Shown here in pieces: positions 1,444 through 50,583 of a stretch of 64,000 nt of DNA. The translations under genes and the position numbers were made by a program. The DNA is from Pseudomonadota bacterium. Its GTDB lineage: Bacteria > Bdellovibrionota_C > UBA2361 > OMII01. The notes beneath the pieces are model-generated. The model made no database searches. It was not told the DNA's origin and saw only the letters and a program-made list of their open reading frames with translations. Where the stretch lies: positions 67,440 through 131,439 of the forward strand of contig JAYPVM010000006.1 of assembly GCA_038134595.1 (NCBI GenBank). Reading direction: 5' to 3'. The stretch's first letter is position 1. Each line of letters opens with the position of its first letter.

Positions 1444-2682
1444 CTAAAAATGCTCGGCAAACCAACCTGCAAACTTTCGCATCGTCGTACCCAAGGCCCC
1501 ACCGAACTGCCTCGAGTCAATTTTTCGCCCTCGAATTTGGCTTGCCGAACAACCCTGCCGAACCAGTCCAACCGCGGTTGCATACTCGGGGGCCCTTACC
1601 AAGTCCTTCAATCCATTAACCTCAAACTCCCCGGCGGCCCTTACAGGCAAATTAAGTGCCTGTTCAGCCATCTGAGTCAAACCAGGTAGATTTGCAGTGC
1701 CGCCAGTAAGAACGACTCCGCCAATGAGCATGTCAGCGCAACCTGCTTTCACTACATGATGCTGAACTAAGCTAATAATCTCAGCCATACGCGGCTCGAT
1801 TATGTCGGATAAGATAGACTTAGATAGCACTCGCGGTTGTCGCCCCCCAACCGAGGGGACTTCAATAATGTCATTTAAAGACGCTCCCGCAACACACACC
1901 GCCCCGTAATCGCACTTGATGCGCTCAGCAGATGCAACTGGAGTACGGAGCCCCGCCGCAATATCATTTGTGATATGATTACCGCCTACCGGCAGAACAT
2001 GCGTATAATGCACACCGCCGGCATGAAAAACTGACAAGCCAGTCGTACCGCCCCCAATATCAACCACTAAAACTCCGAGCTCTTGCTCCTCCTCAGAGAC
2101 AGCCGCGGCACCTGCCGCCAGGGGAGAGGCAATAATATCTCGAACTGACAAGCCACACCGATTGGCGCATTTAACCACATTTTGACCGCTCGCTATCGCC
2201 CCTGTGAGTAGATGGACATTCACCTCTAATCGAACTCCAGACATTCCAACTGGATCTCGAACGCCATCCTGATCATCAACAATAAATTCCTGCGGTAAAA
2301 CATGCAGAATTTCTCTATCCAACGGCAATGCTACAGCGCGGGCCGCCTCTATCACTTTCTCGATATCTGCTACCGAAACTTCATTATTCTTGACTGCAAC
2401 TATTCCATGACTGTTCTGAGAGCGTATATGACTTCCAGATATAGATGCGATAACTGAAGAGATTTCACAGCCCCCCATTGACTCGGCTTGGCTCATCGCC
2501 TTCGCTATCGCCGATACCGTGCTCTCAATATTAACAACAACTCCCTTTCGAAGCCCGCGAGATGGGGCCGAACCAACCCCTATGATATCGACTCCTCCAT
2601 CCTCAGTGCGAGCACCAATCACCACCTTAATGCTCGAAGTACCTATATCTAATCCGGTCACTAACGACGATGAGCTTGCCAT
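1444..2682 (-). CDS. ftsA: Cell division protein FtsA
   Basis: 412 aa with an actin/Hsp70-fold FtsA N-terminus (LVTGLDIGTSSIKVVIG) and FtsA-like length. It sits immediately upstream of ftsZ on the same strand. Confidence 0.9.
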   Translation of the reverse strand: MASSSSLVTGLDIGTSSIKVVIGARTEDGGVDIIGVGSAPSRGLRKGVVVNIESTVSAIAKAMSQAESMGGCEISSVIASISGSHIRSQNSHGIVAVKNNEVSVADIEKVIEAARAVALPLDREILHVLPQEFIVDDQDGVRDPVGMSGVRLEVNVHLLTGAIASGQNVVKCANRCGLSVRDIIASPLAAGAAAVSEEEQELGVLVVDIGGGTTGLSVFHAGGVHYTHVLPVGGNHITNDIAAGLRTPVASAERIKCDYGAVCVAGASLNDIIEVPSVGGRQPRVLSKSILSDIIEPRMAEIISLVQHHVVKAGCADMLIGGVVLTGGTANLPGLTQMAEQALNLPVRAAGEFEVNGLKDLVRAPEYATAVGLVRQGCSASQIRGRKIDSRQFGGALGTTMRKFAGWFAEHF

Positions 2683-2983
2683 ACCGAATTCTCCATATAA
2701 CCCTTTTTACGTTCAGCACTTTGAGTGAGAAACCAATTGAGTGTAAGCCCCTTTCGTTCAGCCGCACTGAAACAACTACTGCGCCCCAAAACGAAGAGCT
2801 AATACACACAATACTCCGAACTTCTTAGGGTCTTATCGTCTTTAAATGACAGACAATTCAACCCCGTTCTATTACCATTAGTTTAGAGCGACGTGCCACC
2901 TGCCCAGATTAAACAGAGTTTGAACGACTCGCAAGACACTAATTTTGCGATCTATTCCTATAACGCTTCAGATATTCAACACG

Positions 2984-3772
2984 TCAGGGTGTACGAAATG
3001 ACACCACCCCTACCCGATTAAAGGCTAAGTCTATTTTATCAATATCCGAATATCGATCGCGAACTTCATACAAGAGCGCAGCGCACCTTTTACCCTGCTC
3101 CGCTAAGGCCACTCCATTGGAGGATTCAAGGCCGAATATGATCGGAAACGGCAATCCCTGGAAGTTTACTTTTAGATCTCCGTGGCCAATAAATGCCAGA
3201 GAGACAACTGCTTTTCCAACCTCCTTCTGCAATATTGTCATAAAACTACTTGCTGAATAAAGCTGACTCCTCACCACCTCAGGCGAACTCACCCGTGAAG
3301 CTAGTCCCTTGATTGACACTAGCTTCATATCGTATCGAAGCAGTACGACATCACTATCCGGCACTATAAACGAGCCCTCTCCGTCCACTATCCAAGTATT
3401 TCCATCGACCACAGCGCTAAATACAGGCTCCCTCTCTTGGATCCTTAGAACGAAACACCCCCATTTAGACATCAAGCCTTCATCACAAGAATCAACAGAG
3501 GCTGATTTAATCCAAGGATTGTCCATCAACTTTGCTTGAATTTCGGGCTCATTCAAATGCCACCATAAGACTGAGCGAGAATGCGGCAACAGAGGCTCAA
3601 TATCACTGTGAGTTAACACTACAAGCCCCTGCACCTTAACTTTCTTGTCATTCCAGAAGGATGCAGCAATTTTCGCACTCTCACTAAGTCCGGATTTAAA
3701 AAACTCCGGATTATCGAGCACATGAATAAAAACAACTGCGGCAGCGAGTGCCAATGTATAGACAATTCTCAT
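2984..3772 (-). CDS. ftsQ: Cell division protein FtsQ/DivIB (POTRA-domain, single N-terminal TM)
   Basis: 262 aa with an N-terminal hydrophobic anchor (YTLALAAAVVFIHVL) followed by a periplasmic domain. The ftsQ-ftsA-ftsZ order matches the dcw cluster. Confidence 0.7.
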   Translation of the reverse strand: MRIVYTLALAAAVVFIHVLDNPEFFKSGLSESAKIAASFWNDKKVKVQGLVVLTHSDIEPLLPHSRSVLWWHLNEPEIQAKLMDNPWIKSASVDSCDEGLMSKWGCFVLRIQEREPVFSAVVDGNTWIVDGEGSFIVPDSDVVLLRYDMKLVSIKGLASRVSSPEVVRSQLYSASSFMTILQKEVGKAVVSLAFIGHGDLKVNFQGLPFPIIFGLESSNGVALAEQGKRCAALLYEVRDRYSDIDKIDLAFNRVGVVSFRTP

Positions 3773-4096
3773 ACACGTAGTATAGGACGATTACATCCGG
3801 AAGCCGATATATAAAATATGTTTCCGGAGCGAATCATTACTGAAAACAAATTCTCAGGGCTCACTTTATCTTCCACATATCGACACATCCGCCGCGCTTA
3901 TAACTCATAGAAACTCCACGTCCTCATTTAATCGTAAAACGAGCCCCCAAATACCGCAGTATCAACCAGTACGTTTTACACCAACATGTGAGCAACAGCA
4001 GACTAGGGCTTCACTCAAACGCCTAAAACAATCGAACTCTAACTTTACTCCCAGCGCCCCGCAATCTATTCACAATTGGCAGGGGTACGAAAGCTC

Positions 4097-5074
4097 TTAT
4101 CCCAATGTTACTTGAGAATCGCGAACTACCGGCTCTTGGTTTTTAGCATCATACTCCCAGAGACGAATCTCCGGTTCCAAGGTTACTCCTGCCAACTGCT
4201 GCGCTTGATCCTTGCAGTACGTTATTAATTCCTGAACGTGCCTTGCCGTGCCCTGCTTGGACGGATTAACAATCCAATTTGCGTGAAGCTCTGAAATACG
4301 AACATCGCCAATTGCAACGCCCTTCATTCCCACCTCCTCTAAGACCCTACCTGCACTCAGCGTTGGGGAAGGATTTTTAAATACCGATCCTGCCGAGGGC
4401 ATTGAAAGTGGTTGCGTCGCCTTTCGGTGGGCAAGGTTATTAAGGCAGTTGGCATTGATCCTATCTCTGTCGCCACGCACAAGACTCATAACAACCTCTG
4501 TTACTATTAAGCTAGAAGGCAATCCTGAGTGCCGGTAATTCCACGCCAAATCATCGCCCTGCAACTCACAATACTTTCCCTCTTTGGAAAATCCTCTGAT
4601 AAGATCAACTCGCTCCCCTATTTCTGCTCCATGTGCTCCGGCATTCATATAAACACCACCGCCGAATGACCCCGGAATGCCCGCCGCAAATTCCAATCCA
4701 GAGAATCCCTCCTTAGACATCCTCCTTGACTCTCTCATTAACGAGGCGCCCGCACCAAAGCAGAATGTCTCTTGGCAAATACTCCGGCTAGTTCGAAACT
4801 TCCCGCCCAAACGGATCACCCAACCATGTACGCCACTATCGGGAATCAATACATTACTCCCAAATCCGAGCGTCACAATCGACTGCTGTTCTGCATGCAA
4901 TAACTGCAACAGTGCTTGTAGCTCCGTATCATTATCTACCGTTACAACCGCTCTACACGGGCCTCCGATTGAAAACGTCGTTAGGGTCTTTCCTTGAACA
5001 TCCCTCACAACTCGACCACGAACAATCTTCTCGACGGAAGGCAGTAAAGCCGAATTAAAGCGACAACTATTCAT
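4097..5074 (-). CDS. murB: UDP-N-acetylenolpyruvoylglucosamine reductase MurB
   Basis: 325 aa with an FAD-binding PCMH-type N-terminus (SIGGPCRAVVTVDNDTEL...LGFGSNVLIPDSG) and the MurB C-terminal domain. It sits between murC and ftsQ. Confidence 0.85.
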   Translation of the reverse strand: MNSCRFNSALLPSVEKIVRGRVVRDVQGKTLTTFSIGGPCRAVVTVDNDTELQALLQLLHAEQQSIVTLGFGSNVLIPDSGVHGWVIRLGGKFRTSRSICQETFCFGAGASLMRESRRMSKEGFSGLEFAAGIPGSFGGGVYMNAGAHGAEIGERVDLIRGFSKEGKYCELQGDDLAWNYRHSGLPSSLIVTEVVMSLVRGDRDRINANCLNNLAHRKATQPLSMPSAGSVFKNPSPTLSAGRVLEEVGMKGVAIGDVRISELHANWIVNPSKQGTARHVQELITYCKDQAQQLAGVTLEPEIRLWEYDAKNQEPVVRDSQVTLG

Positions 5075-5134
5075 ATTACGCCAAGAAGACCCGTTGAATA
5101 CTACCTAAGAACCACTATCAGATAAAAAGATGCC

Positions 5135-6571
5135 TTACTCACCAAACCCATTTGCATGCTGGCGAACAAGCTCATTTGAAGATGTTTTCAAATTTTCTTT
5201 ATCCGCTAATTTTTCCAAAAGCATTGCTGGCAACCCGCCTATTGAGCCTGCCCCTAAGCATACAATCACTTCCCCATCGACAAGCTCTCTGTCGAGAATC
5301 TCCCATACACCAGTAAGGGAAGGCACAAACGCCTTGTCACTATGGGTTACAGCAGTGGTTAAGTTCTCACCAGTGATGCCATCAATAGATTCCTCATTGG
5401 CGCTATAAATATCAGTAATAATAAGACGGTCGCAGTCCTTAAACGCTCCCTGCAAATCCTTCCAGCAACTCTCTGTGCGACTATATCTATGCGGCTGAAA
5501 AACTGCTGTAATTCGCCTCTTTGGACTTACAAAACACTCCCTCAAGGCACGCAGACTTGCCTGAATCTCAGTTGGATGGTGCCCGTAATCACTCATCACT
5601 GTCACACCTTGAGAAGTTCCCACCACTTCCAATCTTCGTTTTACTCCCCCAAAAGAGCATAGCGAACCTCGAACTGCATCTATCGGCACCCCAAACTCAA
5701 GTCCGACAGCGATTGCGGCCAATGCATTCTGCACCAAATGTCTACCTAACATTGGCAAAAAGAACCGTCCCAAGTCTTCGCCCAAAAACGTCACAGAAAA
5801 CTCCATTCCTGCTGGGCCCGCAACTATATCAATCGCTCGCAAATCAGCATCCTCACTGAAGCCATATGACATAGTTCGGCGAGATATCTCACCTAAAAAC
5901 TTTCGTAAAACTGGATCATCGATACAAAGTATTGCAAGCCCATAAAATGGTACTGATTCGATAAACTGACGAAAAGAGTCCTCTAAGTCGCTACGTGAGC
6001 TGTAGGCATTCATATGCTCATCGTCTATATTAGTCACGACAGCAACGGTTGGCTTCATCAACAAAAAGCTCCGATCGCTCTCGTCGGTTTCTGCCACGAG
6101 GTATTCCCCTCTACCGAGTCGAGCACCTGTACCTAAGTGTTGCAACTGCCCTCCAATAATAACCGTCGGATCGAGCCCGCCTGCCTCAAGAATTGCGGAG
6201 GCAATACTTGTTGTTGTGGTCTTCCCGTGAGAGCCAGCAACACCCACACCGTACTTTAGCCGCATCAACTCCGCTAGCACTTCGGCGCGCCGCACTAACG
6301 GAAGCTGTCGCCTCTTTGCTTCGAGAATTTCCGGATTATCCGGCACTATGGCTGATGAATAAACTACCAGCGAGGCCTCGGCCGGTATGCTTTGAGCACT
6401 ATGCGTAAAAACTATGTGCGCTCCCTGGGCCATCAATCTATTACAGACGGCACTCTTCTTAATATCAGAGCCGCTCACCTGAAAACCTGAAGCTAGAAGA
6501 ATTTCGGCCAATCCCGACATCCCGGAGCCGCCGATCCCTATAAAATGAAAATACAAGCCTGCTTTGTACAT
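5135..6571 (-). CDS. murC: UDP-N-acetylmuramate--L-alanine ligase MurC
   Basis: 478 aa. Carries the N-terminal FHFIGIGGSGMSGLAEIL motif and the ATP-binding GVAGSHGKTTTTS motif typical of Mur ligases. Confidence 0.9.
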   Translation of the reverse strand: MYKAGLYFHFIGIGGSGMSGLAEILLASGFQVSGSDIKKSAVCNRLMAQGAHIVFTHSAQSIPAEASLVVYSSAIVPDNPEILEAKRRQLPLVRRAEVLAELMRLKYGVGVAGSHGKTTTTSIASAILEAGGLDPTVIIGGQLQHLGTGARLGRGEYLVAETDESDRSFLLMKPTVAVVTNIDDEHMNAYSSRSDLEDSFRQFIESVPFYGLAILCIDDPVLRKFLGEISRRTMSYGFSEDADLRAIDIVAGPAGMEFSVTFLGEDLGRFFLPMLGRHLVQNALAAIAVGLEFGVPIDAVRGSLCSFGGVKRRLEVVGTSQGVTVMSDYGHHPTEIQASLRALRECFVSPKRRITAVFQPHRYSRTESCWKDLQGAFKDCDRLIITDIYSANEESIDGITGENLTTAVTHSDKAFVPSLTGVWEILDRELVDGEVIVCLGAGSIGGLPAMLLEKLADKENLKTSSNELVRQHANGFGE

Positions 6572-6911
6572 AAAGCCTCACAAAACTCCGGTTATAAAAG
6601 AGGTCTTATAATACAGATAAATATACACAAGGAAAACTCTAGTATAGGGCATCTAGCTTTTACGTGGCACGAGTCACATAACTAACTAAAAACGGGCGCG
6701 TTTTTGAGATTTTCATTCCCGTCGTTCCAGAACGGTTGGTAGTTATTTCAAACAAATCAGACTAACAAAGGTCCCCACATCGCCTCCATGTAGCTTCAAT
6801 TATCAAGATCGCTTTGAGTCGGATAAGACCATTGTTTGCATCGACAACCTTTACTAGACTATTTGCTGGCAACAGGTGATAACACATTAAAATAGTATAG
6901 CAAATACGCCG

Positions 6912-7661
6912 ATGGAAATCCTTGAGGAGCTTAAAGTACTAGATCAACCAACAGATACGCCGCCCCAGGTGCGATATCAGTTTAAGTCTCTTCCCGGATC
7001 GAGCCACTCATGGGCCATAGGACATCTCCTGCGGGATATTAGAGGCAAGTCCATGCTGGATGTGGGAGCAGGTGGTGGAGCAATTGGACAAATTATTGCC
7101 GGCCATCACCCACGACAGATTACAGCGGTTGAAATAGATAACCGAGCCCACGAGAATCTACAAAAAACCTACAACTCTGTTTTCACTGAGGTTACTGAAA
7201 TCCAGGGTGAGCGCTTTGACTGGATAGTTGCCTTGGACATCTTGGAACACCTTACAAATCCTGAGCAGTATATTAACAATCTGAGGAATCTTCTCTCTCC
7301 GGGCGGAAAAATGCTGGTTTCAGTTCCTAACGTTGCACATTGGAGCGTTCGCTTTCCCCTCTTTTTTTGCGGAAGTTTTGAATATCGCTCAATCGGAATT
7401 ATGGATGCCTCTCATCTTTATTTCTTTACAAGAAAACGATTTCACCGACTGTGTGCCGGATTAGCCAAAACAAATGTGATAGAATTTTCCTCGAGCATTG
7501 AGCCCTTCGAACTAGCTCTCCCTAAGTGGGTAGGAAAGAGTCCGATCTACCAAAAATTAATCCCCGCCCGTCGTCTATTTGCCAAGGTATTACCGGGCCT
7601 TATGGCATACCAACATCTAGCCCTGCTACAAGATTCATCCTCCGACGACGTTACCTCGTAA
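6912..7661 (+). CDS. Class I SAM-dependent methyltransferase
   Basis: 249 aa with SAM-binding motif I (MLDVGAGGGAIG) and motif II/post-I (DWIVALDILEHL), the Methyltransf_11/23 type. Divergent from murC. Confidence 0.7.
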   Translation: MEILEELKVLDQPTDTPPQVRYQFKSLPGSSHSWAIGHLLRDIRGKSMLDVGAGGGAIGQIIAGHHPRQITAVEIDNRAHENLQKTYNSVFTEVTEIQGERFDWIVALDILEHLTNPEQYINNLRNLLSPGGKMLVSVPNVAHWSVRFPLFFCGSFEYRSIGIMDASHLYFFTRKRFHRLCAGLAKTNVIEFSSSIEPFELALPKWVGKSPIYQKLIPARRLFAKVLPGLMAYQHLALLQDSSSDDVTS

Positions 7662-44222: not shown

Positions 44223-45110
44223 TCACCGGATAAGAACATCTAGTAGCGTGCAAAGAAAAAAAATGACGCTGGCCAATCCATTTCTTAAGAAAAATATCGG
44301 TTCAATTTGAGCATTTCGATCTCGCGCCACTGAGATGTGCTGTGTCGCTATTAAACCCGCAAAGAATACTATACCGGCCCAACACACAGCTCCCACATCA
44401 AACCAAACACCAGCTACAGACATAGCGATAACGGTACCAGCATGGAACACGCCGGCGCATAGTAAGGCTCGCCTGCGCCCCAAACGTGCCGGGACACTCT
44501 GTAATCCTCTTGCTCTATCAAACTCGATATCCTGCAGAGCATATATGATATCAAACCCTGCCACCCAAGTTAACACAGCTATCATGAGAGGCACCGGTCG
44601 CCAACTAAACTCACCAGCAATCGCTATCCAAACTCCACCCGGTGCCAATGCCAACGACAAGCCTAACACAGCGTGGCAAAGAATTGAGAAACGCTTCAAA
44701 TAGGAATATCCGAGTAGTATCATCAACACTGGGACAGAGAGATATCCACACAGCAAACTTAGAGCCGATGCAGATGCAATAAAAACAAGTGAAAAAAATA
44801 CGACGAGCATTCCGACCTCTACAGAGCTTACCGTTCCTTGAGGTATCTCTCGCATCGCTGTGCGAGGATTTTCGGCGTCAAGCTTTTGATCTACAAGCCG
44901 ATTAAACGCCATAGCGGCAAAGCGTGCAGAAACGACGCACATCACAATCAAAACAATCTGACCAACCGATATTGAAAATTCATACCATAAGAGGGCAACT
45001 ACCGATAGAGCAAACGGCATCGCAAAAATAGTGTGCGAAAACTTCACGAGCCTCCCCCACACCACTATGCGATCTCCGGTCTTGGTAAATACTGCTCCAC
45101 GCTTATCCAT
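44223..45110 (-). CDS. UbiA-family aromatic prenyltransferase (4-hydroxybenzoate polyprenyltransferase / MqnP-like)
   Basis: About 8 TM helices with the Asp-rich motif variant NRLVDQKLDAENPRT and a second motif near YALQDIEFD. The ORF track extends to 45173. The likely start is the MDKRG codon at 45110. Confidence 0.75.
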   Translation of the reverse strand: MDKRGAVFTKTGDRIVVWGRLVKFSHTIFAMPFALSVVALLWYEFSISVGQIVLIVMCVVSARFAAMAFNRLVDQKLDAENPRTAMREIPQGTVSSVEVGMLVVFFSLVFIASASALSLLCGYLSVPVLMILLGYSYLKRFSILCHAVLGLSLALAPGGVWIAIAGEFSWRPVPLMIAVLTWVAGFDIIYALQDIEFDRARGLQSVPARLGRRRALLCAGVFHAGTVIAMSVAGVWFDVGAVCWAGIVFFAGLIATQHISVARDRNAQIEPIFFLRNGLASVIFFLCTLLDVLIR

Positions 45111-45303
45111 AGGGGTCCCCAAGACGATCATACACATAAAGACAGCTGTTTCAATAGAACCCGTCTTTGTCATGTGCGGGCCGATAGTGAATGCCTAAAT
45201 GGATTTTGTAGCGTCTATTGCTGTTTATATGCCAAATCGGCCGAAAAAATACGTAACGATAGACTCAGATGCTGGATTTTTGTAACATATTGGTGGTGCA
45301 TCC

Positions 45304-46056
45304 ATGAGACTAAAGACGACGCCACAAAATATATCTGATCACGCTACTATGACTTCCCTAAACCACAGGCCACACAGCACTCAAGAGGTGCAAAGGATGT
45401 TCGACAGCATTGCTCCGACCTATGACATTCTAAACCTGATGTTAAGTGGCGGAAGTCACAGGAGGTGGGAATCAAAGCTCGTAGACTCACTACCAGAAGC
45501 GACCTCGGGAATATGCCTCGATATCTGTACAGGCACAGGCGCGTTAATACCCAGATTGGCACGAAGGTTTTCATCTGTTGTCGGTCTTGATGTTTCTCCA
45601 AATATGCTCTCTATCGCAAAACGAAAGTATGGCAGTATGCATAAGGTTTCTTTCATAGAAGCCGATGCCCAAAAGCTACCGTTTTCTGATAACTGCTTTG
45701 ACCGAATCACTGTTGCATACGGGGTTCGAAACTTACCGGACTATCGTACTGGCCTTAAAGAGATCAAACGAGTTCTTAAGCCAGGAGGTGTGGTGGGCAT
45801 TCTCGAGTTTGGGCAACCAAGCGTTCCGGTATGGCGTCAGGCGTTCAATCTCTATTCCAGAACACTTATGCCACTACTGGGTCGAATCGTCTCAGGAGAC
45901 TCCCATGCCTATAGATATCTTCCGAAAACAGCCGCCGCATTTCCATGCGGAAAAGCATTCGAAAATGATTTAATCGCCTGTGGCCTCTCTCCGACTAAAA
46001 CCCACTCATGTTTGGGAGGCATTGCATATATTTATGTGGCTAACAAAAGGACGTAG
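45304..46056 (+). CDS. ubiE: Demethylmenaquinone/ubiquinone C-methyltransferase UbiE/MenG
   Basis: UbiE-specific N-terminus (VQRMFDSIAPTYDILNLMLSGG) and a SAM motif (LDICTGTG). Confidence 0.85.
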   Translation: MRLKTTPQNISDHATMTSLNHRPHSTQEVQRMFDSIAPTYDILNLMLSGGSHRRWESKLVDSLPEATSGICLDICTGTGALIPRLARRFSSVVGLDVSPNMLSIAKRKYGSMHKVSFIEADAQKLPFSDNCFDRITVAYGVRNLPDYRTGLKEIKRVLKPGGVVGILEFGQPSVPVWRQAFNLYSRTLMPLLGRIVSGDSHAYRYLPKTAAAFPCGKAFENDLIACGLSPTKTHSCLGGIAYIYVANKRT

Positions 46057-46064
46057 AGAAAGAG

Positions 46065-46667
46065 ATGCACGCACATCAAAAACAACGGTGGATAGTTGGT
46101 ATAACCGGTGCGAGTGGAATTCGCTATGCGCAAAAACTTCTAGAAGTGCTTCCGAAGCTTGTCGACGAAGTCCATGTCGTGTTCTCCGAGGCTGCCCTTA
46201 GGGTTTTAAAGGACGAGGAAGGCATAATACTTCGCAGTGGAGCGGTATGCGCAAAGGAAGTTTGTGGACAAGATTACAGCAACATTTTCTTTTATAATCC
46301 CCGGGATATCGGAGCTAGAATCGCTTCCGGTACGATGATAGCACAAGGGATGGTTATCATTCCTTGTTCGATGGGAACACTCGGCGCCATTGCTCACGGA
46401 ATATCAAATCATTTAGTTCATCGAGCCGCTGACGTCACTCTAAAGGAAGGACGAAAACTTATCGTGGTTCCGCGTGAAGCCCCCCTTTCCACAATACATC
46501 TGAAGAATATGCTTATCCTCTCGGAGCTAGGCGCACGTATTATTCCGGCCATGCCAGGTTTTTACAACTCCCCGAAGTCAATCGATGATTTAGTCTCGCA
46601 TTTTATCATGAAGGTCCTTGACTCAATGGGAATTCACACCGACCTAGCAAAGCGCTGGTTAGAGTAG
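46065..46667 (+). CDS. ubiX: Flavin prenyltransferase UbiX (prenyl-FMN synthase; MqnL-like)
   Basis: 200 aa flavoprotein-fold with VGITGASG and CSMGTLGAIAHG motifs. Confidence 0.85.
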   Translation: MHAHQKQRWIVGITGASGIRYAQKLLEVLPKLVDEVHVVFSEAALRVLKDEEGIILRSGAVCAKEVCGQDYSNIFFYNPRDIGARIASGTMIAQGMVIIPCSMGTLGAIAHGISNHLVHRAADVTLKEGRKLIVVPREAPLSTIHLKNMLILSELGARIIPAMPGFYNSPKSIDDLVSHFIMKVLDSMGIHTDLAKRWLE

Positions 46668-46718: not shown

Positions 46719-47525
46719 ATGAAGAACCTCCTTATCAAGGCGACATACACTCTTATTCTCTATTGCTCTGCCGTAGGAGGATTTTTGTTTTTGGGACTAC
46801 CGACCCAGAACCTTGAGGCTAGTCAAAACATGACAAGCCATATCGTAGATGTGACCATTCGAAACCTCGCGCTACTAGTCTCATGGGATGTAATGGTAGG
46901 GCTCTTTTTTCTGTGGCATTCTAAGCGTAGCAACAACGACCCTAATGCGGGAGGATATGGCATAGCAACTGCACTCGTTACCTTGGTCACTCTGTTCATA
47001 CTTCAGGCTTGTCGAGCTCAAATGAGCCATATTCAGTTTATCATTCTCCTGCTCGCTCTCGGATTTCGGGGTATGGGAAAAGGGAGCTGGGAAAACAATC
47101 GTCCTCAAGTGGGCATGCCATCATCCCTTGCTTCTCACTCTTTATTGGCGGCTCTATCTTTTTCTGTGTTCTATAATGGCACACCTCCATGGCAAACAAT
47201 TCCTTTGAGCATCGCCATAGGCTCTATCGTTGCATCAGCAGAACTATCTCAAAACCGCTCAAGCATTAACCGAACACCCTTTCCCGGTCTCTCCCCTTTA
47301 TACCGAGTAATAACCATACTCGGCCCGCTGATTATTACAACATCGGCCTTCGTGGGACTACTCGAACGCCCTTATACCTACTTCCTGATCGCTCTATTTA
47401 TGAGCGTGACTCATGTCAGAAAATCTGATAAGCAGACGCCGATTCCTCCCGAAGCCCGGTATATGGGTGCTGTGATTAGCTCGGCATCTATCGTAGGATT
47501 ACTTGCAATTCGTGCCAGTCTTTAA
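46719..47525 (+). CDS. Hypothetical polytopic membrane protein
   Basis: 268 aa with 6-7 hydrophobic segments. I recognise no motif. Confidence 0.45.
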   Translation: MKNLLIKATYTLILYCSAVGGFLFLGLPTQNLEASQNMTSHIVDVTIRNLALLVSWDVMVGLFFLWHSKRSNNDPNAGGYGIATALVTLVTLFILQACRAQMSHIQFIILLLALGFRGMGKGSWENNRPQVGMPSSLASHSLLAALSFSVFYNGTPPWQTIPLSIAIGSIVASAELSQNRSSINRTPFPGLSPLYRVITILGPLIITTSAFVGLLERPYTYFLIALFMSVTHVRKSDKQTPIPPEARYMGAVISSASIVGLLAIRASL

Positions 47526-48644: not shown

Positions 48645-49007
48645 ATGTCTTACGAATTTTATAAAGCACTTCATCTTTTGGGATTATCTCTTACTCTCTT
48701 ATCATTCGGCGGAATTTTAGTATTTGCGATAAATGGAGGCACAAAGGCATCTAACCAATTTAAAAAGGGAGTAATGATTTCTCACGGCGTGGGCCTTTTG
48801 CTTTTACTCGTCGCTGGCTTTGGTATGTTAGCGAAACTTCAGATATCTGGATTCCCAACATGGGTCGTCCTCAAAATAATCATATGGCTACTCTTCGGCG
48901 GTTTGATAGCAATGGCCTACAAGCAAAACCTGGCCAGAAAACTTTGGTTGCTCATTCCAGCTCTCGTGGTACTTGCTACCATCCTTGCAAACTCCAAGCC
49001 CATGTAG
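48645..49007 (+). CDS. SirB2/YchQ-family small membrane protein
   Basis: 120 aa with 4 TM helices. The N-terminus (YKALHLLGLSLTLLSF) resembles the SirB2 family pattern (Y..K.LHL..v.LS..lF). Confidence 0.5.
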   Translation: MSYEFYKALHLLGLSLTLLSFGGILVFAINGGTKASNQFKKGVMISHGVGLLLLLVAGFGMLAKLQISGFPTWVVLKIIIWLLFGGLIAMAYKQNLARKLWLLIPALVVLATILANSKPM

Positions 49008-49060: not shown

Positions 49061-49990
49061 TTAATGTAAAACACTATTGACGAGCCCCTCTTGTGTTGCG
49101 AATAAAGCCAACTGTGGCTCCGAAAATTCGTACTCTACAGGGTGCAGTAGTTTCTGCGGCGCAATCTCTCTCATTGCCTGTAAAAGTGGCCTATGAGCAT
49201 CTGGCCTTAACCAGTGAAAGCATCGCTCCGACGCTAATTTTTGGGCTGCATAGCCTTTGGGACGACCACCATGCGCAAGCTGTGAAAGACTATGCAGGTG
49301 AACAAAATCACCGTATTGATTCAACAAAGAGGCGAACTTTGTCGCATCGGATCTCCAATCACCGTAAGGCAGTAATGGTGCTACTTGTATGCCAACCCGC
49401 ATCCCAAAATGCCGCAACGTTCTAATGGCCTTAAGGCGCTCCGAGATCAAGGGCATATTGGGCATATAGCGTTTTGCTACTTCATCACAATCTGTTTCTA
49501 TTCCCATCGTAATAAAAGTATTCTTCCTGACTCTCTTTAAAACAGGTATACCGATGACAATAAGTGGAGAACGCGTCTGGATGACAAGTCGCCCAGGAAC
49601 AAAACGTTCAAACAACTGTAAAAACCTCATGCTTGTAGCAAATTTCTCATCGAACGGATGAAACGGATCAGTGGTATTTCCAAAAACAACCGTTGCCCGC
49701 CTTAACTCTCCCCTCCGAGAAAGCCTACTGAGAGTTCGCTCCAATTCATGCACCGGTTCGCCTCCCTCGAGCAAATAGCGGCTTCTGAGCATTTGGTTCG
49801 ACGCACCGTCTACGTCGCCAAGAGCTAAAGATATCAAATCATTAGATTGAGAGACTCGTCCCATTGAGATGCCCCCCGCATAGGAATCAACTACAATGAT
49901 AGACCTGTCGTGACAAACATGCTCTTTCGTGTTGTGCTTACCCATACTCATCGCCATCTCCGCTTTACTCAAATTCTGTTGAACCCCCAA
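49061..49990 (-). CDS. Radical-SAM/SPL-like (COG1533 DNA-repair-photolyase fold) homolog lacking the CxxxCxxC cluster motif
   Basis: The C-terminal two thirds match the SPL-family hallmarks (VVFGNTTDPFHPFDEKF, LVIQTRSPLI, ITMGIETDCDEV, RLKAIRTLRHFGMRVGIQVAPLLPY). The position of the Cys triad (NPY.GC.H.C.YC) reads VDSYAGGISMGRVS here, with no Cys. Confidence 0.55.
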   Translation of the reverse strand: MGVQQNLSKAEMAMSMGKHNTKEHVCHDRSIIVVDSYAGGISMGRVSQSNDLISLALGDVDGASNQMLRSRYLLEGGEPVHELERTLSRLSRRGELRRATVVFGNTTDPFHPFDEKFATSMRFLQLFERFVPGRLVIQTRSPLIVIGIPVLKRVRKNTFITMGIETDCDEVAKRYMPNMPLISERLKAIRTLRHFGMRVGIQVAPLLPYGDWRSDATKFASLLNQYGDFVHLHSLSQLAHGGRPKGYAAQKLASERCFHWLRPDAHRPLLQAMREIAPQKLLHPVEYEFSEPQLALFATQEGLVNSVLH

Positions 49991-50256
49991 AATACTTCAA
50001 GCTACTTAAACTTTAGACGCCGAAAGACCTAAATAGGTTCAAGCTAATTAAAGCAACTTCTTAGCCCTCCTTAACCTACTGTATTAACTAACTTATTAGT
50101 TCAATTTCCCATTCTGTCCGACTAAGCTCCATAGGAATCAACATCAGCAAATGACCTTTTTGGGATTTACTTCTTAGTGCTCTTAGGTAAAGATTCAGCT
50201 ACGATAAAACAGTAAGAATACAACCGAATAACGTTTCTGTTGGGAAGGAGTTTGCT

Positions 50257-50583
50257 ATGGCAGGTAATGTCGCAGAGATAAGCGATGCAGAATTTGATGA
50301 AAAAGTACTGAAGGCTTCCAACGTGGTAGTGGTAGACTTTTGGGCTCCATGGTGTGGTCCATGCAAGAGCATCGCTCCTGTATTGGAAGAAGTTGCATCC
50401 GACCTCGGAGATGCTGTGGCAATTTACAAGATAAACGTTGATGACAACAACAAGAGCCCAGCTCAATACAACGTTCGGGCTATACCAAACCTAATTATCT
50501 TCAAAGGTGGTGCAGAGGTTGATAGAGTGGTCGGTGCAGTACCTAAAGAGCAACTAGTAGATACTATCAAGAAAGCGCTCTAG
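50257..50583 (+). CDS. trxA: Thioredoxin
   Basis: 108 aa with the WCGPC active site. A strong SD (GGAAGGAG) sits 6 nt upstream. Confidence 0.9.
   Translation: MAGNVAEISDAEFDEKVLKASNVVVVDFWAPWCGPCKSIAPVLEEVASDLGDAVAIYKINVDDNNKSPAQYNVRAIPNLIIFKGGAEVDRVVGAVPKEQLVDTIKKAL

Follow-up and report, generated by a model that had tools for sequence, protein, structure and literature searches.

A cysteine-triad-free clade of SplB-like radical SAM homologs, found mostly in uncultured Bdellovibrionota

The radical S-adenosylmethionine (SAM) superfamily is defined by its iron-sulfur cluster, and sequences that lack the cluster motif are usually thrown out as fragments. What, then, is to be made of a gene that keeps the fold of such an enzyme and none of its cluster cysteines? 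The question is raised by a 64,000-nucleotide stretch of DNA from a Pseudomonadota bacterium (assembly GCA_038134595.1, contig JAYPVM010000006.1, positions 67,440 to 131,439; hereafter the window, with positions counted from its first letter), in which an open reading frame (ORF) on the reverse strand (49061..49990) had been described by a first-pass annotation, made from the letters alone, as a spore photoproduct lyase (SPL)-like protein of the COG1533 branch in which all three cysteines of the [4Fe-4S] cluster are replaced. We find that it belongs to a whole, deeply diverged clade that lacks the cluster cysteines and keeps the rest of the active-site architecture; what had been a single odd protein is now a stable, selected and regulated clade, and a natural experiment in the repurposing of a cofactor-dependent barrel.

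Homology, cysteine content and family breadth

The window protein belongs by true homology to the COG1533/SPL-like radical SAM branch, and the resemblance that had first been seen by eye is upheld by both profile and fold searches. Alignment (hhalign) of 25 aligned family sequences (A1) with 12 canonical relatives that carry CX3CX2C (A2) extends over residues 69–283 and 210 columns, with a probability of 99.9% (E 6.6e-36). The AlphaFold2 (AF2) model of the window protein (predicted local distance difference test, pLDDT, 75; predicted template modeling score, pTM, 0.74) is built of alternating beta/alpha elements, and a Foldseek search of the PDB with this model places SPL first (4fhg, E 2.3e-5, template modeling (TM) score 0.41–0.47), with 34 matches at E<=1e-3 and with radical SAM enzymes as 49 of the 50 matches listed. 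SPL likewise comes first in the PDB for the AF2 model of a canonical relative, P0231 (E 3.5e-8, TM 0.61). Searched by sequence, the PDB holds no meaningful match to either the protein or the family profile.

Curated family models recognize the protein only in part, with all Pfam and NCBIfam matches confined to residues ~79–234. The match to Pfam Radical_SAM (PF04055; E 5e-4) scores 20.7 bits against a threshold of 29.5 and spans only profile positions 29–152, thus leaving the Cys-motif part of the model unmatched, and that to Pfam SPL (PF20903; E 0.012) reaches 15 bits against a cutoff of 27. Among NCBIfam models there are local matches to the PA0069 (1.8e-10), mobile-pair B (8e-10), Rv2578c (5e-8) and SPL (4.7e-4) families, the first three confined to residues ~88–234; for the COG1533/SplB-like subgroup (NF033668 PA0069, NF038135 Rv2578c, TIGR04470) the bit scores are 40.3, 38.5 and 32.4 against curated cutoffs of 360, 410 and 430; scores are about one-tenth of the cutoffs, none of which is reached, and SPL proper (TIGR04070) stands at 19.2 bits against 400. 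A PHROG family annotated as 'DNA repair photolyase' is matched at E 0.0045.

The cysteines of the cluster are gone from the family as a whole, which bears out the replacement of all three in the window protein. That protein has cysteines only at residues 26, 168 and 257, and not one of these is conserved; there is neither an invariant Cys column in the family alignment nor a set of three conserved alternative ligands in place of the triad, and CX3CX2C occurs in 0 of 166 full-length members, 79 of which have at most one cysteine and 21 none. A motif hidden behind a different start or a frameshift was also looked for and is absent: the three reading frames 5' of the ORF carry no Cys motif and are stop-rich, leaving no concealed upstream exon or frameshifted Cys segment. 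The start itself probably lies downstream of the TTG from which the ORF is counted, at the ATG at 49951 (M14) or 49957 (M12), giving a protein of about 296–298 aa, since the first residues of homologs map to M12–M16 and a GGAG stands 6 nt 5' of the M14 ATG. As judged from these alignments, the family would be unable to assemble a [4Fe-4S] cluster, and reductive cleavage of SAM to a 5'-deoxyadenosyl radical is expected to be lacking, because the triad is missing family-wide and many members lack cysteine altogether. ThiC, Dph2, HmdB and QueE also depart from CX3CX2C, yet they bind [4Fe-4S] through three cysteines placed elsewhere or otherwise spaced, whereas not a single cysteine is conserved in the window family. 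We found nothing specific in the literature on cluster-less radical SAM homologs or a Cys-less SPL-like family, and RadicalSAM.org speaks of a sequence without the motif only where truncated entries are concerned. With the triad missing and every curated cutoff failed, neither 'radical SAM protein' nor 'DNA repair photolyase' should be used as an annotation; the family falls outside every Pfam and NCBIfam model, and pipelines therefore name its members 'hypothetical' or, wrongly, by one of these two terms.

The family is broad and consistent in form. A database of 90%-identity clusters holds 181 relatives, and an exhaustive search of 50%-identity representatives returns 1966 at E<=1e-3, of which 384 reach E<=1e-10; among the best 150 of these 384, 137 lack CX3CX2C and 13 are canonical, the first at E ~3e-22 and the rest interspersed from there downward. 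More than 160 full-length homologs are alike in length and architecture. When a single genome was scanned for each GTDB species, 67 loci emerged, each from its own species genome, with protein identities of 37%–66%, all in assemblies labelled as uncultured lineages, mostly Bdellovibrionota (other labels being Bdellovibrionales, Oligoflexia, 'Deltaproteobacteria' and, for a few, other phyla). There is also a second, more divergent Cys-less sister group (A3, ~260–290 aa), which aligns with A1 over its full length, N-terminal hairpin included, at E 1.9e-54 and with the canonical proteins at E 5.6e-26. The two Cys-less groups are hence closer to one another than to canonical proteins, a pattern consistent with a single ancient loss of the triad. 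The first-pass annotation had asked whether orthologs retain the motif, as after a recent loss, or consistently lack it as a stable subfamily would; they uniformly lack it, and by its sequences this is an old, stable clade rather than a recent lesion.

The gene is under purifying selection. With a 92%-identical ortholog (on L077) as the reference, its ratio of nonsynonymous to synonymous substitution rates (dN/dS) comes to 0.117, alongside 0.18 for prmA, 0.09 for a tetratricopeptide repeat (TPR) gene, 0.045 for adh and 0.014 for trxA, and 57 columns are invariant across A1. The earlier suggestion that the protein is catalytically dead as a radical enzyme, and is a pseudoenzyme, a scaffold or a repurposed protein, is supported, with 'catalytically dead' to be read of radical chemistry alone: a dN/dS of 0.12 together with invariant pocket residues speaks for a function that was kept or newly gained.

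Cys-less and canonical proteins are both basic (median isoelectric point, pI, 9.55 and 9.48, respectively). The distant members P0100–P0230 also tend to share their last residues, 74 of 111 ending exactly in -AA and 52 in -FAA (IFAA, LFAA, MFAA; examples are P0100, P0103, P0108, P0110 and L046:5989-6834); in the window's closer clade the -AA ending is found in 1 of 84, and the window protein bears a C-terminal extension instead. The -FAA endings resemble C-terminal ClpXP degrons of the ssrA/RecN type.

The probable former SAM pocket and cluster loop

The canonical COG1533 clade (~288 aa, NPYxGCxFxCSYCY, e.g. P0231 and P0235), whose members are weak relatives of the NF033668 PA0069 and NF038135 Rv2578c families, has the same size and barrel core as the window family. 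Common to both are TDP[YF]xP, IQTRSPL, the T that ends beta4, R185 and VAPLLP; in the terms of COG1533, the blocks of the homologous barrel core (TDPYQP, TKS/TRS, APxxP) are present in the window family, whereas the N-terminal NPYxGCxxxCxYC motif is absent. What sets the canonical clade apart is the CX3CX2C triad (with 5–9 Cys per protein) and, following the loop, a WGxW strand; the window family has instead a variable linker, RSRY replacing WGxW, an added PYGDW and the invariant residues D35, E165 and E184.

SPL (SplB; PDB 4FHC/4FHG; TIGR04070, PF20903) has the closest fold in the PDB, and its SAM contacts are described: Ser142/Asp143 after beta2, Lys174 after beta3, Ser195 after beta4 and, through its backbone, Ala234 of 'VAP' (PMC3467042). 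The window family likewise has an Asp after beta2 and a basic residue after beta3, as SPL has Asp143 and Lys174 (PMC3467042), and it shares the VAP...W after beta5 (SPL 'VVAPIYRHEGW', window 'QVAPLLPYGDW'). We infer from motif position that D108, R140 and ET 165–166 are the equivalents of the SPL contacts; those of VAP and R185 can be seen in a weak HMMER alignment of A2 to SPL, and a PDB search with one canonical relative gave nothing usable for carrying over SPL residue numbers. Other parts of SPL have no counterpart here. Its H-donor Cys (Cys140/141), two residues before the S-D of the GGE-equivalent, is not in the window protein, where FGNTT precedes TDP; neither the alpha/beta domain at its N-terminus nor its Arg-Tyr beta-hairpin is detectable, and the ~30 residues that precede the window hairpin leave no room for that domain.

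Conservation falls into an old and a new layer. D108-P109 (TDP), Q138-T139-R140-S141-P142-L143, T166, P177, P180, R185, G196 and P205 are common to the two Cys-less groups and the canonical proteins. Taken as motifs, all those of the canonical relatives outside the cluster are kept (TDP, QTRSPL, ET, ER and VAP), and TDP (D108), QTRSP (R140), ET (165–166) and VAP (204) are invariant as well as present in canonical relatives. Conserved in Cys-less proteins only are D35 (at 96% in each of the groups), E165 (100% and 92%), E184, Q202, G104 and P149, and the window's own group adds RSRY (69–72), PYGDW (208–212) and FxWLRxD (258–264). The ancestral pocket-lining residues thus appear to have stayed under selection despite the lost cofactor, with new carboxylates apparently fixed beside them. 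D35, D108, R140 and E165 are the targets this offers for a search for nonradical chemistry or ligand sensing in the SplB-like branch, the canonical DNA-repair-branch members of which are themselves still uncharacterized.

The fate of the cluster loop differs from what had been proposed. The sequence VDSYAGGISMGRVS had been placed exactly where NPYxGCxHxCxYC stands in canonical proteins, a placement supported neither by global hhalign nor by comparison of the AF2 models; the local profile alignment, for its part, ends at residue 69 and so lends it no support. When hhalign is forced to be global, it sets the canonical motif opposite roughly residues 45–57, at the start of linker 47–68, and pairs VDSYAGG with the canonical pre-beta1 hairpin 'KSALTPTGGFLRG', both with low confidence. 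In the AF2 model of canonical P0231, strands 14–16 and 26–34 are followed by the Cys loop with short helices (34–57), a strand (62–66) and a helix (69–82); in that of the window protein, strands 30–37 and 40–46 are followed by the linker (47–68, with pLDDT <50 at residues 49–53 and 59–65), a strand (70–73) and a helix (79–92). The order of secondary-structure elements in both models fits a motif opposite the linker. On these models it is more likely that the cluster loop decayed into the variable linker 47–68, and hairpin 34–46 (family consensus VDSYAxGISIGR) is probably the counterpart of 'KSALTPTGGFLRG' rather than of the Cys loop. A residue-by-residue equation of VDSYAGGISMGRVS with the Cys motif was rejected as unsupported by the global profile alignment and the two models, and the resemblance of NPY to DSY and of GC to GG is probably coincidence.

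Upstream control, trxA and the case for a cluster-free function

A conserved element stands upstream of the gene. Counts of k-mers in 61 intergenic regions revealed words present in up to 48 loci, as against <=10 in shuffles, and these align into an element of ~60 nt that reads, on the gene's strand, aCTTTAAG-N4-TTGAACC-N15-17-GC(G/T)TC-N2-A-N2-TTTAAG-N4-TT(A/G)AAG (in degenerate form CTTTAAS-N4-TTGAAYC-N15-17-GCNTC), with 23 invariant columns in 51 sequences (e.g. L006:5810-5883). Its core TTGAACC-N15-GCGTC (50042..50016) is unique in the window, where 0.02 occurrences are expected by chance. The element is kept in L053, where trxA is absent from the gene's side, so it belongs to the Cys-less gene rather than to the trxA pair, and its core also lies 5' of A3-type genes in L073 and L080. 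These sequences show, as far as conservation can, that the family has dedicated transcriptional control.

The element is better read as a DNA-level promoter or operator than as a hairpin or 5' untranslated RNA, a reading that was dropped when RNAalifold found no consensus structure (0 pairs) in the 51 copies; an Rfam search of the intergenic region also gave no match. A scan for sigma-70 promoters gave 0 sites. A sigma-28 reading was rejected because a GCCGATA-like -10 is correctly spaced in only 5 of the 51 copies. In these five (L039, L042, L048, L052 and L056) the GCCGATA-like word lies in the TTGAACC-GCGTC spacer, 19 nt after TAAG, an arrangement that fits the sigma-28 consensus, TAAAGTTT-N11-GCCGATAA; in several other loci GCCGATA stands just 5' of the element. 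TGAAC-N16-17-CGTC resembles promoters of the extracytoplasmic function (ECF) type, and the 10-bp-spaced TTNAAS repeats resemble sites of response regulators. Another word, GGGATTTACT (or AGTAAATCCC when read from the opposite strand), is likewise conserved and is found at 50162-50171 (+), ~85 nt 5' of the trxA ATG, with exact matches in the window and ~20 related loci; it may be part of a trxA promoter or leader.

The first-pass annotation had the gene convergent with a SirB-like gene and adjoining trxA, and Pfam matches confirm both neighbours. The SirB-like gene is confined to the window's sub-clade. In contrast to prmA and adh, which shift, invert or vanish across loci, trxA stays: in 60 of the 62 informative genomes (GTDB loci with enough upstream sequence) it lies directly beside the gene, head to head, down to 37% protein identity, across a gap of 231–662 nt (trxA start to family residue 31), the loci without this adjacency being L046 and L053. 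Three A3 members (L073, L079 and L080) instead sit between a conserved hypothetical gene of ~360 aa and an M48 peptidase. That hypothetical gene, upstream and on the opposite strand, has no Pfam match and is 53–65% identical among the three loci; the peptidase lies downstream. In L073 this neighbourhood is at 2561-7606. No partner gene is common to both Cys-less groups. A canonical paralog close by was considered as a partner and ruled out, tblastn with single canonical proteins finding none in the 64-kb window, where their sole match is the ORF itself (E 1.7e-19).

Relatives in the same branch give these observations a setting. Canonical COG1533 SplB-like genes are SOS-regulated DNA-repair genes, and Rv2578c is linked to LexA in M. 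tuberculosis (PMC8565304, PMC3765255). Regulation of the window family looks similarly dedicated and non-housekeeping, given that the element travels with the gene; unlike in the SOS-regulated relatives, however, no LexA-type palindrome was recognized in CTTTAAS-N4-TTGAAYC-N15-17-GCNTC. Nor is the element known to resemble a LexA box.

We hypothesize that the window protein is a functional, cluster-free and neofunctionalized SplB-like (COG1533) descendant with a repurposed pocket, which is the best explanation of these data and one we consider reasonably probable; that the protein is functional, cluster-free and nonradical, whatever its exact role, is very probable. The old cluster loop would have decayed into the variable linker 47–68, and the barrel's pocket, at the strands' C-terminal ends, would have been retained through D108 (TDP), R140 (QTRSP) and A204 (VAP) and re-equipped with the new invariant carboxylates D35, E165 and E184. 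A putative ligand (SAM-like, nucleoside or nucleic acid) would occupy this retained pocket, there to undergo nonradical chemistry (acid/base or metal-ion assisted, with D35, D108 and E165) or simply to be bound, and the protein would be expressed from its own conserved promoter, not of the sigma-70 type. Whether it would be catalytic rather than purely binding is an even call, and a nucleic-acid-related role has somewhat less than an even chance. The SOS-linked repair function of canonical COG1533 genes, the basic pI, the gene's own promoter and the head-to-head trxA together suggest a role in the response to stress or damage. One could go further and propose that the clade swapped oxygen-sensitive Fe-S/radical chemistry for cofactor-free or carboxylate/metal chemistry in the same pocket while still acting on the kind of substrate that its ancestors used (damaged DNA, a nucleotide or SAM), as an oxygen-tolerant stress enzyme with its own promoter and an ancestral -FAA degron; this more elaborate scenario is unlikely. 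Several points weigh against a repurposed pocket under dedicated control: the AF2 model is only of moderate quality (pLDDT 75), with its N-terminal third poorly defined; the retained motifs could be kept for folding alone; and, as A3 is not next to trxA, the adjacency may be inherited synteny.

The most substantial rival would have the protein as a noncatalytic pseudoenzyme, its barrel surviving only for binding or as scaffolding (reading damaged DNA or SAM, for instance, or partnering another protein). A cofactor site lost while conservation and purifying selection stay strong would fit this, as would the basic pI, like that of DNA-repair-linked relatives, and the -FAA ends of many distant members, which may be protease degrons of a sort typical for regulated factors; but the new invariant D35, E165 and E184 beside the pocket motifs resemble a rebuilt active site more than a passive surface, and there is neither a conserved partner gene across both Cys-less groups nor a canonical paralog nearby, so that we regard it as rather unlikely. 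The persistence of trxA beside the gene, where prmA and adh are mobile, invites the idea that its product supplies reducing equivalents or a structural subunit to the former radical SAM pocket. Many members, however, have no or one cysteine, which leaves the protein itself unable to serve thioredoxin as a disulfide substrate; the A3 sister group lies away from trxA, the adjacency is missing from L046 and L053, and in L053 the upstream element is kept even so. The link to housekeeping trxA, which is far more constrained (dN/dS 0.014), is perhaps one of synteny only. Functional coupling of any kind to thioredoxin is therefore doubtful, and this specific partnership more doubtful still. That the protein is yet a radical SAM enzyme, its Fe-S cluster held by non-Cys ligands or by cysteines donated from a partner, would account for the retained motifs of the SAM pocket outside the cluster; we find it hardly credible, with no three conserved substitute ligands, an expected loop region that is variable and predicted to be disordered, 21 members without any cysteine and no conserved partner, and we know of no precedent for a site-differentiated [4Fe-4S] cluster on three non-Cys ligands. 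Finally, the sub-threshold Pfam and NCBIfam scores might have pointed to an artefact, either a pseudogene in decay or an ORF called wrongly, its true Cys-bearing N-terminus lost to a frameshift or assembly error. More than 160 homologs of the same architecture, a dN/dS of 0.12, stop-rich upstream frames and the conserved promoter-like element refute that reading and leave it a negligible chance. The functional, cluster-free descendant of a SplB-like protein is the account that we carry forward.

Feature coordinates and flanking genes

Table 1. Features of the gene and its surroundings, in positions of the window; residues are counted from the TTG
Feature	Position	Strand	Remarks
Cys-less radical-SAM-fold ORF	49061..49990	-	309 aa counted from TTG
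Conserved N-terminal beta-hairpin, residues 34–46	49853..49891	-	VDSYAGGISMGRV; family alignment, AF2, global hhalign
Linker, residues 47–68	49787..49852	-	variable in sequence and length, mostly low pLDDT
Barrel core, residues 69–283	49142..49786	-	partial (beta/alpha)6; hhalign, alignment
Core motifs			RSRY 69–72; TTDPFHPFDEKF 106–117; QTRSPL 138–143; ET 165–166; ER 184–185; QVAPLLPYGDW 202–212; FHWLRPD 258–264
Promoter-like element	49995..50053	-	CTTTAAT-N4-TTGAACC (50042..50036)-N15-GCGTC (50020..50016)-N5-TTTAAGTAGCTTGAAG (50010..49995); ends ~45 nt 5' of likely start
trxA, thioredoxin (WCGPC)	50257..50583	+	Pfam Thioredoxin 3e-34; divergent from Cys-less gene
SirB-like small membrane protein	48645..49007	+	Pfam SirB 1.9e-7; convergent with Cys-less gene

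A PADLOC search gave no defence-system match. At L001:7670-8776 a canonical radical SAM gene (Radical_SAM and CofH_C, Mqn-like) stands between the SirB-like and TPR genes, and the window has no equivalent at that place. Upstream in the window lies a cluster of the quinone-biosynthesis type, made up of genes for a UbiA prenyltransferase (44223-45173, -), a UbiE methyltransferase (45304-46056, +) and a UbiX-like flavoprotein (46065-46667, +). It is followed at 46719-47525 (+) by a gene for a 268-aa predicted multi-pass membrane protein without a Pfam match, which is weakly conserved (33–35% identity) at the corresponding place of a few related loci.

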